This document shows, piece after piece, positions 19,097 to 45,943 of a stretch of 64,000 nt of DNA; the first letter of the stretch is position 1, and each line of letters begins with the position of its first letter. Origin of the DNA: Escherichia coli (GTDB lineage: Bacteria > Pseudomonadota > Gammaproteobacteria > Enterobacterales > Enterobacteriaceae). The DNA is taken from the NCBI RefSeq assembly GCF_003018115.1, contig NZ_CP027457.1; one strand, given 5' to 3'. Both the position numbers and the translations under genes were made by a program. Under the pieces are notes generated by a model that saw only the letters and a list, made by a program, of their open reading frames with translations, did not search any database and had not been told where the DNA came from.

Positions 19097-19168
19097 GCTC
19101 AACTCCTGCCATGGAACGTAGTACTCACCAATAAGTAAGCATCAATACGGCGCTCCGTTAACGCTTAC
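19097..19168 (+). mobile_element. IS66-family right-end remnant (about 70 bp)
   Basis: CTCCTGCCATGGAACGTAGTACTCACCAATAAGTAAGCATCAATACGGCGCTCCGTTAACGCTTAC matches the last ~65 bp of the complete IS66 at 21836-21899 with a few mismatches. Confidence 0.6.
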
Positions 19169-19452
19169 TAGCATGGTTATCTCCTTAAAAAATTGAGGCG
19201 ACAACTATGCTGACACAGGGGGTTACTCACCGATCTCCTTCACGGTAATACGCAGTTCTTCAGAACCCGCCTCCGATACCAGCCTGGCGGTCGCCCCGGC
19301 GCAACAGAATAAATCAACCATCGTCAGACTGCGATCATTCGTAATGTTCCGGGGACCTCATCTTCAGTAAGCGTAAACTGACCGCCGTATGTAGCCATTA
19401 AGCCAGTATTGGTAACGTAGGTGCCCACCTTTTCAACTAGTGGACACCTGTT

Positions 19453-19878
19453 ATGGAACAGAAAATATTATCCTCAGAACCCCGCAGATCATTTTCAAAT
19501 GAGTTTAAACTTCAAATGGTTAAACTGGCTTCACAACCAGGAGCCTCTGTTGCCCGTATTGCCCGGGAACACGATATCAATGATAACCTCCTGTTCAAAT
19601 GGCTCAGGCTCTGGCAGAACGAAGGGCGTATATCGCGGCGTCTTCCGGTAACAATCTCTTCTGGCGCTGGCGTTGAATTATTACCTGTTGAGATAACGCC
19701 TGATGAGCAGAAAGAGCCTATGGCGGCTCTTACTCCGCTTTTATCCACTCCTTCACAAAGCACAGTCAGTGCCAGTTCCTGTAAAGTTGAGTTCCGCCAC
19801 GGTAACATGACGCTGGAAAATCCTTCACCAGAGCTGCTCACGGTGTTGATCCGTGAACTGACCGGGAGGGGACGATGA
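19453..19878 (+). CDS. tnpA: IS66 accessory protein TnpA (orfA)
   Basis: 141-aa ORF with HTH-like ASVARIAREHDINDNLLFKW; first ORF of the IS66 element. Confidence 0.8.
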   Translation: MEQKILSSEPRRSFSNEFKLQMVKLASQPGASVARIAREHDINDNLLFKWLRLWQNEGRISRRLPVTISSGAGVELLPVEITPDEQKEPMAALTPLLSTPSQSTVSASSCKVEFRHGNMTLENPSPELLTVLIRELTGRGR

Positions 19879-20225
19879 TCTCGCTCCCATCAGGTACCCG
19901 TATCTGGCTCGTTGCCGGCGTTACCGATATGCGTAAATCCTTCAACGGACTGGGAGAACAGGTACAACATGTGCTGAATGATAATCCCTTCTCCGGTCAC
20001 CTGTTTATCTTCCGTGGCCGACGGGGTGACACCGTCAAAATTCTTTGGGCTGATGCTGATGGTCTGTGCCTGTTCACCAAACGCCTGGAGGAAGGCCAGT
20101 TTATCTGGCCTGCGGTACGTGACGGCAAGGTATCCATTACCCGCTCGCAACTGGCAATGCTCCTCGATAAGCTGGACTGGCGTCAGCCAAAAACATCCAG
20201 CCGTAACTCACTGACAATGTTGTAA
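19875..20225 (+). CDS. tnpB: IS66 accessory protein TnpB (orfB)
   Basis: 116 aa; start overlaps the tnpA stop (ATGA); typical IS66 orfB position and size. Confidence 0.8.
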   Translation: MISLPSGTRIWLVAGVTDMRKSFNGLGEQVQHVLNDNPFSGHLFIFRGRRGDTVKILWADADGLCLFTKRLEEGQFIWPAVRDGKVSITRSQLAMLLDKLDWRQPKTSSRNSLTML

Positions 20226-20255
20226 AAAACTCCTGACCGCATTATAAAAACGGTC

Positions 20256-42766: not shown

Positions 42767-43486
42767 TCATCTGTGCATCAGGACTTCAGCAATATGCATC
42801 ACTTTTACAGGATGCCCTTCACGGTTAAGCCGACCGCCGATGTTTAGCAGGCAACTGGCGTCAGCCCCGATAAGAAAATCAGGTTTAACATCCATAATAT
42901 GCCCGACTTTCTCTTTCACCATTTCACCAGAGATCTCCGCCATTTTTACAGAGAATGTGCCGCCAAACCCGCAGCACGTTTCCTGAGCGTGAAACGGCAG
43001 TAGCTCAAGCCCCTGTACATTCTCAAGTAGCAAAAGCGGCTCTCTGGTTACCCCCAGCTTACGGGAAAGGCTGCAGGAGGGATGGTACACAGCGCGACCA
43101 TTGAGTTTTGCCCCAACATCTGTGATGCCAAGATGATTTACTATAAATGATGTCAAATCATGCAGGCGTTCAGCCACTTTTTCAGCTCGTGCCGCCCACT
43201 CAGGTTCTTCACTGAGATAGCGAGCGTAATTTTTTATCGTGTAAGTGCATGACCCGGCAGGAGATACTACCGGCCAGTCATTCTCTTCCAGCGAAGATAT
43301 GAGATTTTTCATGCCCGGGATGGCATCACGAACATAACCGCCATTTATCGCTGGCTGACCACAACATCCCTGCTTTTCGGGGAAATGGACATTGCAACCC
43401 AATTGCTCCAGTAACAGCACACTCTTTTGTGCCATCCGGGATTTAAACGCATCACCAATGCAGGTGACGAAAAAGTTAACATTCAC
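42767..43486 (-). CDS. ykgE: LutA/YkgE Fe-S oxidoreductase subunit
   Basis: 239 aa with CCG-type Cys motifs (CCGQP, CCGFGG). Confidence 0.9.
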   Translation of the reverse strand: MNVNFFVTCIGDAFKSRMAQKSVLLLEQLGCNVHFPEKQGCCGQPAINGGYVRDAIPGMKNLISSLEENDWPVVSPAGSCTYTIKNYARYLSEEPEWAARAEKVAERLHDLTSFIVNHLGITDVGAKLNGRAVYHPSCSLSRKLGVTREPLLLLENVQGLELLPFHAQETCCGFGGTFSVKMAEISGEMVKEKVGHIMDVKPDFLIGADASCLLNIGGRLNREGHPVKVMHIAEVLMHR

Positions 43487-43535
43487 AGAAATTTCTCCTG
43501 TTGATTAATATTCCACGTCCTTTTGTTGTTTTTTC

Positions 43536-45092
43536 TCAGGCCATGAACAGGTGGTAGACAAGGCCTACTTTCAGTCCAAGAATAACAATATAAGCAAAGC
43601 AGTACTTCAGTGTTCCTGACATGATTACGCTGCCCTGACCATCCATACGGGTGGCTGAAACAGCGATAGCAATACTCTGAGGAGAAATCATTTTGCCGCC
43701 TGTTGCGCCAGATGTATTTGCGGCAGCCAGCCAGAGCGGGTCCACATGCAATTTTTCAGCCGCAGTAGTCTGCAATTTACCAAACAGAATGTTGGAGTTT
43801 GTGTCACTACCAGTAACAAATGTACCAAGAGCGCCGATAACCGGAGCAATGAAGAGGTAGGCCCCACCAGTCAGATCCACAAGGCTCTGTGCCAGAGTGC
43901 CAATCAACCCACAGACATCCATTACCGTTGCCATGGCAACAATCGCAGAAATGGCAATAATGGAGTTTTTAAGTTGTTTTACCGTGCTGACAAATACGTT
44001 TAACAGGCATGACAGGGATGCTTTCTGTATCAAGCCGCCAATAACACTGGCAATGATAATCAGAACACCGGGGGTTGCGATCCATTCAATTTTCATCGAC
44101 AGATTGCTGCCGTTACTCAGAGAGAAGGTGAGTGACGAGGCAATCTGAGACACTGCACTTTTTATCGTCGGGAACAGTGGAGAGCAAAGCAGAATGAACA
44201 GAAAGATCAGAATGTAGATTGAGCACGCACGTAACAACGCCCCACGAGAGTATGAAAGTGCGCTGGCGCTATCTGCTGAACTCTCAATAAGAAATTCAGG
44301 TTCTGTTTTTTCTTTACGGTTTTTTGCCATAAAGACTATAACGATCAGACTGACAAGACTTCCTGCGAAAGCCGGGAGCTCTGCGCCAAGATTAACAGCC
44401 ACCAGATACTGAGGTATCAATGTGCTAATACCGCACATCAGGGTAATTAACCCTACGCCTCGTATAGCTTTCATACCTCCACCGATAATCGTGACGATAA
44501 CGAAGGGGAGCAGAATGTTGAACAGTGCCAGCTGAAGAATAATCGTCCCGCTGAGTGTGGTTACAGGTAAATTAACTTGTTCAGCAAGCACGGAGACAGG
44601 TATACCGACTGCCCCAAACGCTGTAGGGACTGTATTAGCAACCAGTGATGCAATCGCTGCTTTTAGTGGGTTAAAGCCCAGTGCAATGAGTATACCTATG
44701 GGGATTGCTACCGCTGTACCGTATCCGGCGGCCGCCTCAAGAAATCCGCCAAAACACCATGAGATAAGAAGAACCTGGATGCGTTTATCGTCACTAACGC
44801 TCGCCAGAACATTTCTCAGAATATCCATGCTTTTTGTCGCATTCATCAGGTTATAGCTGTAAATGGCAGCAAGGATGACAATCACAATCGGCCACAAACC
44901 TTTGATTGCGCCGTATACCACAGCAGATCCCATATCCATAACTGGCGTCTGCCAGAAAACCCCTCCAAGGATTAGCGTGAGCAGGAGAGTGCTAAGCACA
45001 GAATAGTGTATGGGCATTTTGACTTTCAGAATCAAAATGATCATCGCCAGAAGGGGGGTAAGTCCCAGTAAAAAAAGCAGGTAATCGTGCAT
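43536..45092 (-). CDS. L-lactate permease family transporter (LctP)
   Basis: 518-aa polytopic membrane protein; C-terminal GALGTFVTGSDTNSNILFGKLQ resembles the LldP family signature. Confidence 0.8.
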   Translation of the reverse strand: MHDYLLFLLGLTPLLAMIILILKVKMPIHYSVLSTLLLTLILGGVFWQTPVMDMGSAVVYGAIKGLWPIVIVILAAIYSYNLMNATKSMDILRNVLASVSDDKRIQVLLISWCFGGFLEAAAGYGTAVAIPIGILIALGFNPLKAAIASLVANTVPTAFGAVGIPVSVLAEQVNLPVTTLSGTIILQLALFNILLPFVIVTIIGGGMKAIRGVGLITLMCGISTLIPQYLVAVNLGAELPAFAGSLVSLIVIVFMAKNRKEKTEPEFLIESSADSASALSYSRGALLRACSIYILIFLFILLCSPLFPTIKSAVSQIASSLTFSLSNGSNLSMKIEWIATPGVLIIIASVIGGLIQKASLSCLLNVFVSTVKQLKNSIIAISAIVAMATVMDVCGLIGTLAQSLVDLTGGAYLFIAPVIGALGTFVTGSDTNSNILFGKLQTTAAEKLHVDPLWLAAANTSGATGGKMISPQSIAIAVSATRMDGQGSVIMSGTLKYCFAYIVILGLKVGLVYHLFMA

Positions 45093-45461
45093 GTCATTTC
45101 CTTAAACGAAAACAAAGTCAGCATCATTACTGTGGTTATTGATAGTTTCCACGCCCTGTCGGACGAGAGTGTTTATTTATCAGGGGGAGAATGAGTATCG
45201 CCTCCAAAATTGGGATGTTCTTATAAAGTATTTTTTAGTTTAAAAAATATAGCTGAATCGTTTCATTGTTATCTTCCATGAATAAATGTTATGAAATAAT
45301 ACTTTTTGGGTATTTTTTGTTTATGCGTGTAACACTTGTGTGCTATCCCGATATAACCTTAAGACTGGAGTTGCAACTGGAGCTCGTCGAAAATCAACGC
45401 CCAAATCCTCGACAAATGGAGAAAGAGAATGAGCAATATCACCAGGAATAGGTAAGCGTCA

Positions 45462-45943
45462 ACGGGGATGAAATACGGGGATTACCGGAGTCAGAGCGTC
45501 TTGCCGTCAGGCAGCAGCGAAGCAAAGTGTTACTAACGTCACTGCATGAATGGATGGTGGAGAAGAATGGTACGCTGTCGAAAAAATCCAGACTGGGCGA
45601 AGCGTTCAGCTATGTACTGAATCAGTGGGATGCCCTCTGTTATTACAGTGATGACGGTCTGGCGGAGGCGGATAATAATGCTGCGGAAAGAGCGCTTCGT
45701 GCAGTCTGTCTCGGAAAGAAAAACTTTATGTTCTTTGGCAGCGATCACGGCGGCGAGCGTGGAGCACTGTTGTACGGGCTGATCGGCACCTGCCGTCTGA
45801 ACGGTATCGATCCGGAAGCGTATCTGCGCCATATCCTGAGCGTACTGCCGGAATGGCCTTCCAACCGAGTTGATGAACTCCTGCCATGGAACGTAGTACT
45901 CACCAATAAATAAGCGTCAATACGGTGCTCCGTTGACGCTTAC
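45462..45943 (+). mobile_element. truncated IS66 copy: 3-prime ~480 bp including the right inverted repeat
   Basis: Near-identical to IS66 21420-21899; left junction reads GGTAAGCGTCAACGGGG joined directly to internal tnpC sequence; same orientation as the complete copy. Confidence 0.85.
45527..45913 (+). pseudogene. tnpC: IS66 tnpC C-terminal fragment (128 codons)
   Basis: Translation identical to the last 128 residues of the complete TnpC (MLLTSLHEWMVEKNG...LLPWNVVLTNK). Confidence 0.85.

Follow-up and report, generated by a model that had tools for sequence, protein, structure and literature searches.

The window, a 64,000-nucleotide stretch of an Escherichia coli contig (NZ_CP027457.1), carries a defence cluster, a CDI locus with orphan modules, a DUF6882 gene, a lutCBA-lldP block and the stump of a SPATE autotransporter gene, in this order. 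According to the RefSeq annotation of the identical region, the CDI locus lies on the minus strand at 21910-39280 and contains cdiB (37514-39280), cdiA (27824-37501), cdiI (27439-27822) and three displaced orphan cdiA-CT/cdiI modules (21910-27237), where the sequence at 21900-23696 is the main cdiA-CT/cdiI of EC5654. The DUF6882 gene (39625-40203) precedes the cargo genes lutC, lutB and lutA and the L-lactate permease gene lldP, which RefSeq places at 40642-45092 on the minus strand. A preliminary description of this DNA had named the latter a ykgEFG/lactate-permease block; lut genes with lldP are indeed present, but they form an acquired lutABC paralogue block and not the K-12 ykgEFG locus. 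The segment 40645-45451 occurs with at least 99.5% identity in about 130 other genomes and plasmids.

The same description had claimed four IS66 pieces on the plus strand, and all of them were found close to where it placed them. The only complete one is an ISEc23-type element of 2533 bp (19367-21899, plus strand), which shows the IS66-family order of intact tnpA (19453-19878), tnpB (19875-20225) and DDE-type tnpC (20256-21869), all on the plus strand, matching the NCBIfam profiles IS66_ISRel24_TnpA (83 bits, cut-off 74), IS66_TnpB (121 bits, cut-off 50) and transpos_IS66 (450 bits, cut-off 180), respectively. RefSeq names the identical transposase 'ISEc23 family'. Both ends are of the GTAAGCG type and open with GTAAGCGT, and the inverted repeats are imperfect, with 22 of 30 positions identical between IRL and IRR. 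In the window sequence the element is flanked by CATCTTCA on the left and AGCTTTCC on the right, that is, without an 8-bp target-site duplication. When such duplications were looked for at the IS66 ends, as the preliminary description had proposed, none was found at any of the pieces in the window.

Left of the complete element is remnant 1, the last 68 bp (IS positions 2466-2533) of an IS682/ISEc23-like element with its IRR end (94%, E 2e-24; plus strand), located between a type I R-M/DarTG/M48 module and the CDI module; it had been given as 19097-19168, but the start lies 4 bp further right and the correct extent is 19101-19168. Remnant 1 is an old scar, and its junction is also found in 2014C-4135, L009 and EC5654. 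Remnant 3, described before as a degenerate piece at 39445-39586, is indeed present and extends over 39436-39589 (plus strand); these 154 bp correspond to IS positions 2354-2509 (85%, E 6e-44) and comprise a 3′ fragment of tnpC with the inner IRR, truncated at both ends so that the last 24 bp of the IRR are missing. PGAP annotates it as a frameshifted transposase fragment. To the four pieces we add a fifth scar, a solo, IRR-like, palindromic IS66-type end of 35 bp on the minus strand (40522-40556; E 0.039 within the window, E 8e-5 against the IRR of copy 1 in 2014C-4135), for which global alignment gave 20-22 in the inverted and 10-11 in the direct orientation. It lies between the DUF6882 gene and lutC and is kept in the plasmid copies described below. 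At least three IS66 sub-lineages are represented in the window, namely ISEc23, an IS682-like one (the IRR of copy 1 is 97% identical to remnant 1) and a diverged relative (85%). In close relatives, additional nested IS66-family elements occupy these places.

At the right-hand side, a peptide-ABC substrate-binding-protein gene is cut by an IS66-type end after its first 23 nt (ATGAGCAATATCACCAGGAATAG, 45429-45451, plus strand); in strain 13E0767 this gene runs on beyond the point corresponding to 45451. A 14-mer (GTAAGCGTCAACGG, 45452-45465, plus strand) is joined here to internal tnpC sequence of a truncated ISEc23 of 487 bp (45457-45943, plus strand), which keeps IS positions 2047-2533 at 99% identity and an intact IRR. 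The preliminary description reported a 3-prime truncation and an IRL-like sequence joined to tnpC. The truncated copy and the junction are real, but it is the 5′ end that is missing, and the 14-mer is of the IRR type, being identical to the reverse complement of the 14 outermost nucleotides of the IRR, and not the ISEc23 IRL, which reads GTAAGCGTAAACTG. It does not contain the subterminal CCGTAT motif present in real ends. The junction occurs in only 5 of 20,395 records, with an identical left flank in all, and the copy is flanked by AGGAATAG and CCTTTGCC without an 8-bp duplication. Homology to SPATE genes starts at 45944, right after the IRR, which bears out the claim that this copy interrupts an autotransporter gene: 45944-46443 (plus strand) encodes the last 165 codons, the beta-barrel, of a Sat/SigA-like autotransporter of the serine-protease type (TIGR01414 match; 86-88% identity to sat/sigA), and a search of the window for the 5′ part, the first ~3.6 kb, gave no match. 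In strain 550 the full-length SPATE gene is split into two ORFs and has the same SdiA-regulated gene behind it. The truncated copy may have originated from an IS66-type end that entered the peptide-binding-protein gene and an ISEc23 that entered the SPATE gene; a deletion would then have fused 14 bp of the terminus to tnpC at position ~2047-2056, with loss of everything between them.

The synteny comparison that had been suggested was informative, for the two-copy state of 2014C-4135 and the empty site of EC5654 reveal a deletion between IS copies. The closest genome, 2014C-4135, carries two directly oriented ISEc23-like copies with perfect 8-bp duplications, CATCTTCA on either side of copy 1 and AGCTTTCC on either side of copy 2. 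Copy 1 is preceded there by CATCTTCA and followed by CATCTTCACAGAAATT and then by tnpA of another IS66-family element, which is 94% identical to one in O157:H7 TR01, and the copy 2 site of EC5654 is uninterrupted, with a single AGCTTTCC. In the window, the 23-bp left flank of the complete element (19344-19366) ends in CATCTTCA (19359-19366), one half of the copy 1 duplication, and the right flank AGCTTTCC (21900-21907), immediately downstream of the terminal orphan cdiI, is one half of the copy 2 duplication. According to a three-way alignment, the element agrees with copy 1 at 103 of 103 informative sites in IS positions 33-517 and with copy 2 at 136 of 137 in positions 529-2525, so that there is a single internal switch of parent at positions 517-529, corresponding to window 19883-19895 in the tnpA/tnpB overlap. 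The flanks from two parental duplications and the clean split of sites show directly, at the level of sequence comparison, that the complete copy is a single-crossover recombinant of two ISEc23-like copies with 5,325 bp deleted, and it has no 8-bp duplication because recombination joined halves of two parental copies. Two directly oriented copies would each have inserted with an 8-bp duplication and then recombined homologously; one crossover at the tnpA/tnpB junction would have removed the equivalent of one IS together with the third IS66-family element, and what remained would be a hybrid IS that looks intact but whose flanks do not match.

An IS66-family end is found at every seam between modules. 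Homology to other CDI islands (L009 and EC5654) ends at 39432-39434, just ahead of remnant 3 with its first base at 39436; the match to the widespread lut block runs up to 45451, one base ahead of the 14-mer, and homology to intact SPATE genes begins at 45944. The earlier claim that IS66 pieces delimit the modules therefore holds, since these boundaries coincide with IS ends. Taken together, the stretch is very probably a mosaic of cargo modules in an integrase-bearing E. coli genomic island adjoining ycdU. The interpretation that IS66 insertion and IS-mediated deletion or recombination assembled the island is supported: repeated insertion is evident, as is deletion for the complete copy, while for the scars at 19101, 39436 and 40522 we infer a part in the joining of the modules, as leftovers of similar earlier insertion-plus-deletion events that would have brought the modules side by side.

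The hybrid element could be an artefact of assembly, in which copies of ~95% similarity were collapsed into one and 5.3 kb dropped, the strain having two copies like 2014C-4135. Outside the IS the window is almost identical to that genome (the left side has 1 mismatch over 5.7 kb, the right side 11 mismatches and 4 gaps over 35 kb), a clean switch point is expected from collapse as well, and the exact chimera was found in no other complete genome of the searched collection. We nevertheless consider this improbable, since a single 64-kb contig spans several IS66 repeats, including the 487-bp repeat at 99% identity, where short-read assemblers normally break instead of bridging. In addition, lutC is intact in the window, unlike in 2014C-4135, and an 8-bp repeat has 5.5 copies compared with 10.5; these differences indicate that the two are not simply one assembly. 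The junction of remnant 1 is common to 46 of 5,426 complete genomes. The fixation of this remnant, the CDI locus of EC5654 without IS66 sequence on the cdiB side, and the known remodelling of cdi islands by recombination (PMC4927057) would fit passive scars, with the modules joined by homologous recombination between islands or by integrase-mediated accretion. That account deserves some weight but is clearly the less probable one: module homology stops 0-2 bp from the scar edges (39434/39436 and 45451/45452), the lut block of 13E0767, in an unrelated context, is also flanked by IS66 sequence (an inverted 65-bp IRL remnant), and the same stretch has two demonstrated IS66-driven rearrangements.

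The segment 39331-45943 (plus strand) is found with 99.9% identity on plasmids, as the cargo and right end of a composite IS66-family transposon of 11.4-11.8 kb. It contains 104 bp of cdiB upstream sequence, remnant 3, the DUF6882 gene, lutCBA-lldP and the truncated ISEc23. On an IncI1 plasmid (L007), which matches the window at 99.94% over 39331-45587 and at 99.2% over 45572-45943, the unit measures 11,760 bp from an ISCro1-like IRL to the IRR of the ISEc23 fragment and is bordered by the 8-bp duplication AGTTTTTT; in 862 plasmids the reconstructed empty site reads through without a break, with 100% identity in several of them. On an IncF plasmid (L012), a unit of 11,397 bp extends from the ISCro1-like IRL to the IRR of X2, an IS66-family element nested in the ISEc23 fragment on plasmids with the duplication GAAAAAAT; this unit has the duplication TATTCCAC, and 2,301 plasmids contain its empty site uninterrupted. 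In both cases the IS ends stand in inverted relative orientation, as in a composite transposon. In p3RM8082 (L011), the target duplication around the unit is absent. Of the three plasmids examined, two have a frameshift in tnpC of the ISCro1-like element. From these data we infer that the unit moved as a composite transposon into IncI1 and IncF plasmids. The corresponding segment of the window is without the ISCro1-like and X2 insertions and its X2 target site is uninterrupted; with high probability, it holds the pre-transposon arrangement of the plasmid lut unit. The 104 bp with which the plasmid cargo opens adjoin cdiB without a break both in the window and in islands that have no lut genes, and this points to movement from chromosome to plasmid. 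In a sister lineage, an ISCro1-like element would have inserted at window position 39331; the truncated right-hand copy is predicted to keep a usable IRR, and the interval from the ISCro1-like IRL to the IRR of the ISEc23 stump, or to that of the nested X2, would then have transposed as a unit with 8-bp duplications. A genome with the ISCro1-like element beside cdiB, as the donor is presumed to have been, was not found in the collection.

The opposite direction, in which the lut segment entered the chromosome from a plasmid-borne transposon, would agree with the near identity of the segment on conjugative plasmids and with the common role of plasmids as donors. It appears quite improbable, however, as the ISCro1-like left end is missing from the chromosome, which across 39331 is contiguous with the cdiB upstream sequence common to lut-less CDI islands. 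Moreover, the chromosome does not have X2, whose insertion on plasmids has a clean target duplication, and no target duplication surrounds the segment in the window. The perfect 14-bp terminal inverted repeats of the 501-bp piece (14-bp inverted IRR, 3′ end of tnpC and IRR) may recall a self-moving, MITE-like element, and a single inserted composite transposon might be suggested by the ends of the whole interval, an IRL at 19367 and an IRR at 45943 that are both intact and in correct relative orientation. We regard both as very improbable. Neither unit is bordered by a duplication (AGGAATAG/CCTTTGCC and CATCTTCA/CCTTTGCC), the 501-bp piece is present at one locus only and not in multiple copies (the five records share their left flank), the 14-mer has no CCGTAT motif, and the plasmid transposons used the ISCro1-like IRL and not the 14-mer.

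None of this departs from established mobile-DNA mechanisms, of which the stretch is a further example, but two events, the 5.3-kb deletion and the probable export of the lactate genes to plasmids, can be retraced at the level of single bases. The tnpA-tnpB-tnpC layout, the ~2.5-kb length, the GTAAGCG ends and the 8-bp duplications, which both the parental copies and the IS682 of O157:H7 show, are those of ISEc23/IS682. The window copy, by contrast, has no target duplication and is a hybrid: ~520 bp at its start, with tnpA, derive from a diverged IS682-like copy, and the rest is canonical ISEc23. Genome reduction by recombination of direct IS copies is classic for IS1, IS629 and IS26 in E. coli and Shigella. 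Our case does not differ in kind, having same-orientation copies, loss of the interval with one copy, and a survivor with mismatched half-duplications; it is unusual in that the parents differ at 240 sites, and therefore the crossover could be placed within 12 bp. As described by Ruhe et al. 2016 (PMC4927057; Poole et al. 2011 cited there), E. coli cdi islands have arrays of orphan cdiA-CT/cdiI with transposase genes nearby. The present cdiBAI is similarly located on an integrase-bearing island with displaced orphans downstream and an IS directly after the last orphan, but in this case the IS stands outside the array, and no toxin module is shown to have been moved by it. The plasmid unit resembles Tn5, Tn10 and Tn9 in its IS-bracketed cargo moved as a unit, its target duplication and its empty sites. 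It differs in that its ends come from different IS66 members (ISCro1-like IRL with ISEc23-stump or X2 IRR), its right-hand 'IS' is a 487-bp stump without transposase, and its cargo is metabolic (lactate utilisation) and not resistance.

On balance, we lean towards a joint reading of these results, in which IS66 transposition can pair ends of different family members, a transposase-less 3′ stump being sufficient as the right end, and the window represents the chromosomal progenitor of a so far unnamed lactate-utilisation transposon, consisting of the ISCro1-like element, DUF6882, lutCBA, lldP and the ISEc23 stump, with at least two entries into IncI1/IncF plasmids. If this is true, the 14-bp tip of the inverse IRR, which did not serve as an end, would set a lower bound on the content of an IS66 end, and the subterminal CCGTAT motif would be a plausible requirement of such an end.

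The window is an E. coli genomic island that adjoins ycdU/pgaA and carries a tyrosine integrase (55463-56680), and only one complete genome, that of strain 2014C-4135 (NZ_CP027310.1), was collinear with it. No tRNA gene was found by ARAGORN in the whole window, and the integrase region (55463-57632) adjoins ycdU. A perfect octanucleotide repeat, GCGAATCA, at 48297-48340 is present in 5.5 copies here versus 10.5 in 2014C-4135, and this tract could be prone to slippage.

The complete IS66-family element at 19367-21899 (2533 bp) has intact tnpA, tnpB and tnpC, and an identical transposase carries the RefSeq label 'ISEc23 family'. 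Its gene content and ends place it in the IS66 family. When the window was searched with it by BLAST, the copy and all the remnants listed in the preliminary description were recovered, with small corrections of the coordinates: a truncated copy at 45457-45943 (IS positions 2047-2533, 99% identity), remnant 3 at 39436-39589 (IS positions 2354-2509, 85%, E = 6e-44) and remnant 1 at 19101-19168 (IS positions 2466-2533, 94%, E = 2e-24), each on the same strand as the complete copy. In addition, a palindromic IRR-like end of 35 bp, absent from that description, was found at 40522-40556, with its best alignment inverted. The IS66-type IRR is itself internally palindromic (TAAGCGTCAATACGG / CCGTTGACGCTTA; 21866-21899, 19135-19168, 40522-40556 and 45910-45943), and for this reason the orientation of the short remnants is ambiguous; the palindrome could form a hairpin. 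Origins of remnant 3 from an ISCro1-like element or from two further IS66-family elements found in relatives (X and X2, see below) were ruled out, as it matched the ISEc23 group only, at about 85%.

Target duplications of 8 bp were looked for at every IS end and none was found within the window; for the complete copy, whose left flank is CATCTTCA and whose right flank is AGCTTTCC, they were found in a relative. At the corresponding locus, 2014C-4135 has two ISEc23-like copies in the same orientation with the third element, X, between them, and CATCTTCA is located on both sides of copy 1 and AGCTTTCC on both sides of copy 2. Copies 1 and 2 can be told apart at 240 aligned sites. The window copy agreed with copy 1 at all the 103 informative sites in IS positions 33-517, and with copy 2 at 136 of the 137 in positions 529-2525. 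This switch of parent argues for a single crossover at 19883-19895, in the tnpA/tnpB overlap, that would have deleted 5,325 bp, and the lack of a duplication at the complete copy is then explained by recombination between copies 1 and 2. The predicted crossover is confined to a 12-bp interval, with a loss of 5.3 kb. Outside the IS, the 5,679 bp to the left show a single mismatch between the window and 2014C-4135, and the 35 kb to the right show 11 mismatches with 4 gaps; this near-identity indicates that the deletion is recent. EC5654 has no full IS here, and its copy 2 target, with a single AGCTTTCC, is uninterrupted directly downstream of cdiI. A collapse of two copies in the source assembly of the window would mimic such a chimera and is the one alternative left, which we consider unlikely. 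The chimera-specific 122-mer had no match in the species-representative genomes, a collection that, with one genome per species, is uninformative on this point.

The left flank is common to many STEC genomes, and the possibility that these share the same insertion was rejected for O157:H7 TR01, where the site differs and has its own duplication, TCTTTCTC. Inverted repeats were sought at the ends of X, the element that the window has lost, and none was found. A direct repeat of 91-94 bp, far exceeding the length of a target duplication, brackets X in 2014C-4135 (positions 5563-5656 and 10815-10908 of locus L001). It is the start of a 41-codon minus-strand ORF, with a window counterpart within 19169-19343, and the same segment occurs twice beside an X-related element in the O157:H7 tellurite island (4848-5093 of the TR01 locus, L013).

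To the left of the IS66 region lies a defence cluster (7000-19001) with an anti-phage dGTPase (7000-8388) and a type I restriction-modification system (hsdM, 9700-12138; hsdS, 12132-13445; hsdR, 15190-18285), in which darT/darG is nested between hsdS and hsdR and which is followed by an M48 peptidase gene. The segment between the M48 stop codon and remnant 1 (19001-19100) recurs elsewhere in other E. coli genomes with 94-97% identity, one recurrence being annotated as transposase, and may be debris of another mobile element. The junction of remnant 1 was common to 46 of 5,426 complete genomes; this remnant is an old scar. To the right of the complete copy lies an orphan toxin/immunity array (21900-27822), whose first part (21900-23696) is the in-frame, current cdiA-CT/cdiI of EC5654 and a displaced orphan in the window. 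A 121-bp direct repeat (85%) within the array, at 25848 and 27207, may mark recombination tracts. The location of cdi loci on islands and the association of orphan modules with transposases are documented (PMC4927057).

Homology to other CDI islands (TW14588, EC5654) stops at 39432-39434, directly before remnant 3. The lut block, which encodes a lactate permease and LutABC (40645-45451), occurs by itself in some 130 further genomes and plasmids, in which a peptide-ABC binding-protein gene continues after it. In the window this gene is severed after 23 nt, exactly at a 14-mer (45452-45465) that is fused to the internal tnpC sequence of the truncated copy, and the remainder of the gene was not found when the window was searched. 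As the preliminary description had stated, the right-hand copy interrupts an autotransporter gene: its IRR is followed by the final 165 codons of a SPATE gene of Sat/SigA-like type, whose 5′ part (the first 3.6 kb) is absent from the window. In strain 550 this gene is present at full length, divided between two ORFs, and the SdiA-regulated gene downstream of it is also that of the window. In the lut-only context, an inverted 65-bp remnant of the ISEc23 IRL lies about 200 bp from lutC, and therefore IS66-family ends accompany the lut block in unrelated settings as well. The ISEc23 loci of P393-F10 and PO06101, considered as the same insertion site, are in Ag43-type genes at different sites. The occurrence of ISEc23 in Ag43/AIDA-type autotransporter genes of these two unrelated genomes, and in the SPATE gene, may reflect a target bias, or these may be just tolerated targets.

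The 14-mer, GTAAGCGTCAACGG, had been described as an IRL-like sequence joined to internal tnpC. The junction is real and the terminus is a different one, because the outermost 14 nt of IRR, inverted, give exactly the 14-mer, which differs from the ISEc23 IRL at two positions. It stands in place of the tnpC sequence CTGTACGCCATCGA, with which it agrees at 7 of 14 positions, and the alignment of full ISEc23 copies to the junction starts at the sixth base and has three mismatches. This junction was confined to five records (four plasmids and the chromosome of 2014C-4135), all with one left flank, and it is therefore attributed to a single ancestral event; a proliferating miniature element was rejected as its origin on the same grounds. 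Most economically, we infer a short-homology deletion, in which an IS66-type terminus in the binding-protein gene would have been joined to the tnpC of an ISEc23 copy within the SPATE gene. Real ends have GTAAGCG in common and, around positions 17-24, the subterminal motif CCGT(AT). The 14-mer has no such motif and is a predicted example of a non-functional IS66 end, in accordance with the use of an ISCro1-like IRL instead by the plasmid units described below.

The lut segment was also found on plasmids. Strain 2011C-4315 has an IncI1 plasmid that matches window 39331-45587 with 99.94% identity and 45572-45943 with 99.2%. On this plasmid, position 39331 is abutted by an ISCro1-like element, and the ISEc23 fragment contains X2 with an 8-bp duplication, GAAAAAAT, at a site uninterrupted in the window. 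The unit, 11,760 bp from the ISCro1-like IRL to the IRR of the ISEc23 fragment, is flanked by AGTTTTTT, and 862 plasmids have its reconstructed empty site without interruption, several of them with 100% identity. In the IncF plasmid pMB7355_2, an 11,397-bp unit with the X2 IRR as its right end lies in a thermonuclease gene, which it interrupts, between copies of TATTCCAC, and 2,301 plasmids have the corresponding empty site in contiguous form. The signatures of the units are thus those of a composite transposon of the IS66 family, which would have moved at least twice. In the third plasmid copy, on p3RM8082, no target duplication was found at the unit, which is bracketed by duplicated hok/mok/sok modules (3521-3737 and 16045-16261), an arrangement that suggests secondary recombination between plasmids. 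In the window, and likewise in CDI islands devoid of lut, the first 104 bp of the plasmid cargo join cdiB without a break, and the ISCro1-like element and X2 are both absent from the window. This points to transfer from chromosome to plasmid, with the progenitor arrangement probably retained in the window. In the literature, no description of the lut transposon was found, and for ISEc23 catalogue-type mentions only. The lutC ORF (40642-41337; 231 codons) is intact in the window and plasmids and annotated as frameshifted in 2014C-4135 (32279-32802 of L001).

Repeated IS66 insertion with IS-mediated deletion or recombination, proposed earlier as shaping the island, is supported by the chimeric copy, the plasmid transposon and the homology boundaries at IS ends. 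Composite transposition and the loss of DNA between directly repeated IS copies are both textbook processes, and the mechanism of IS66 is poorly characterised. The present case is a well-resolved yet ordinary example of IS-driven island remodelling, which does not overturn current understanding: IS copies erode an island and export part of it, here a metabolic block (lactate permease and LutABC) carried from the island in the chromosome to conjugative plasmids. Of note for IS66 biology, elements of the family nest repeatedly in or beside each other, and mixed ends, together with a truncated, transposase-less stump, apparently serve as transposon ends; the use of mixed ends and of such a stump as right end, read from sequence signatures alone, is mildly interesting.
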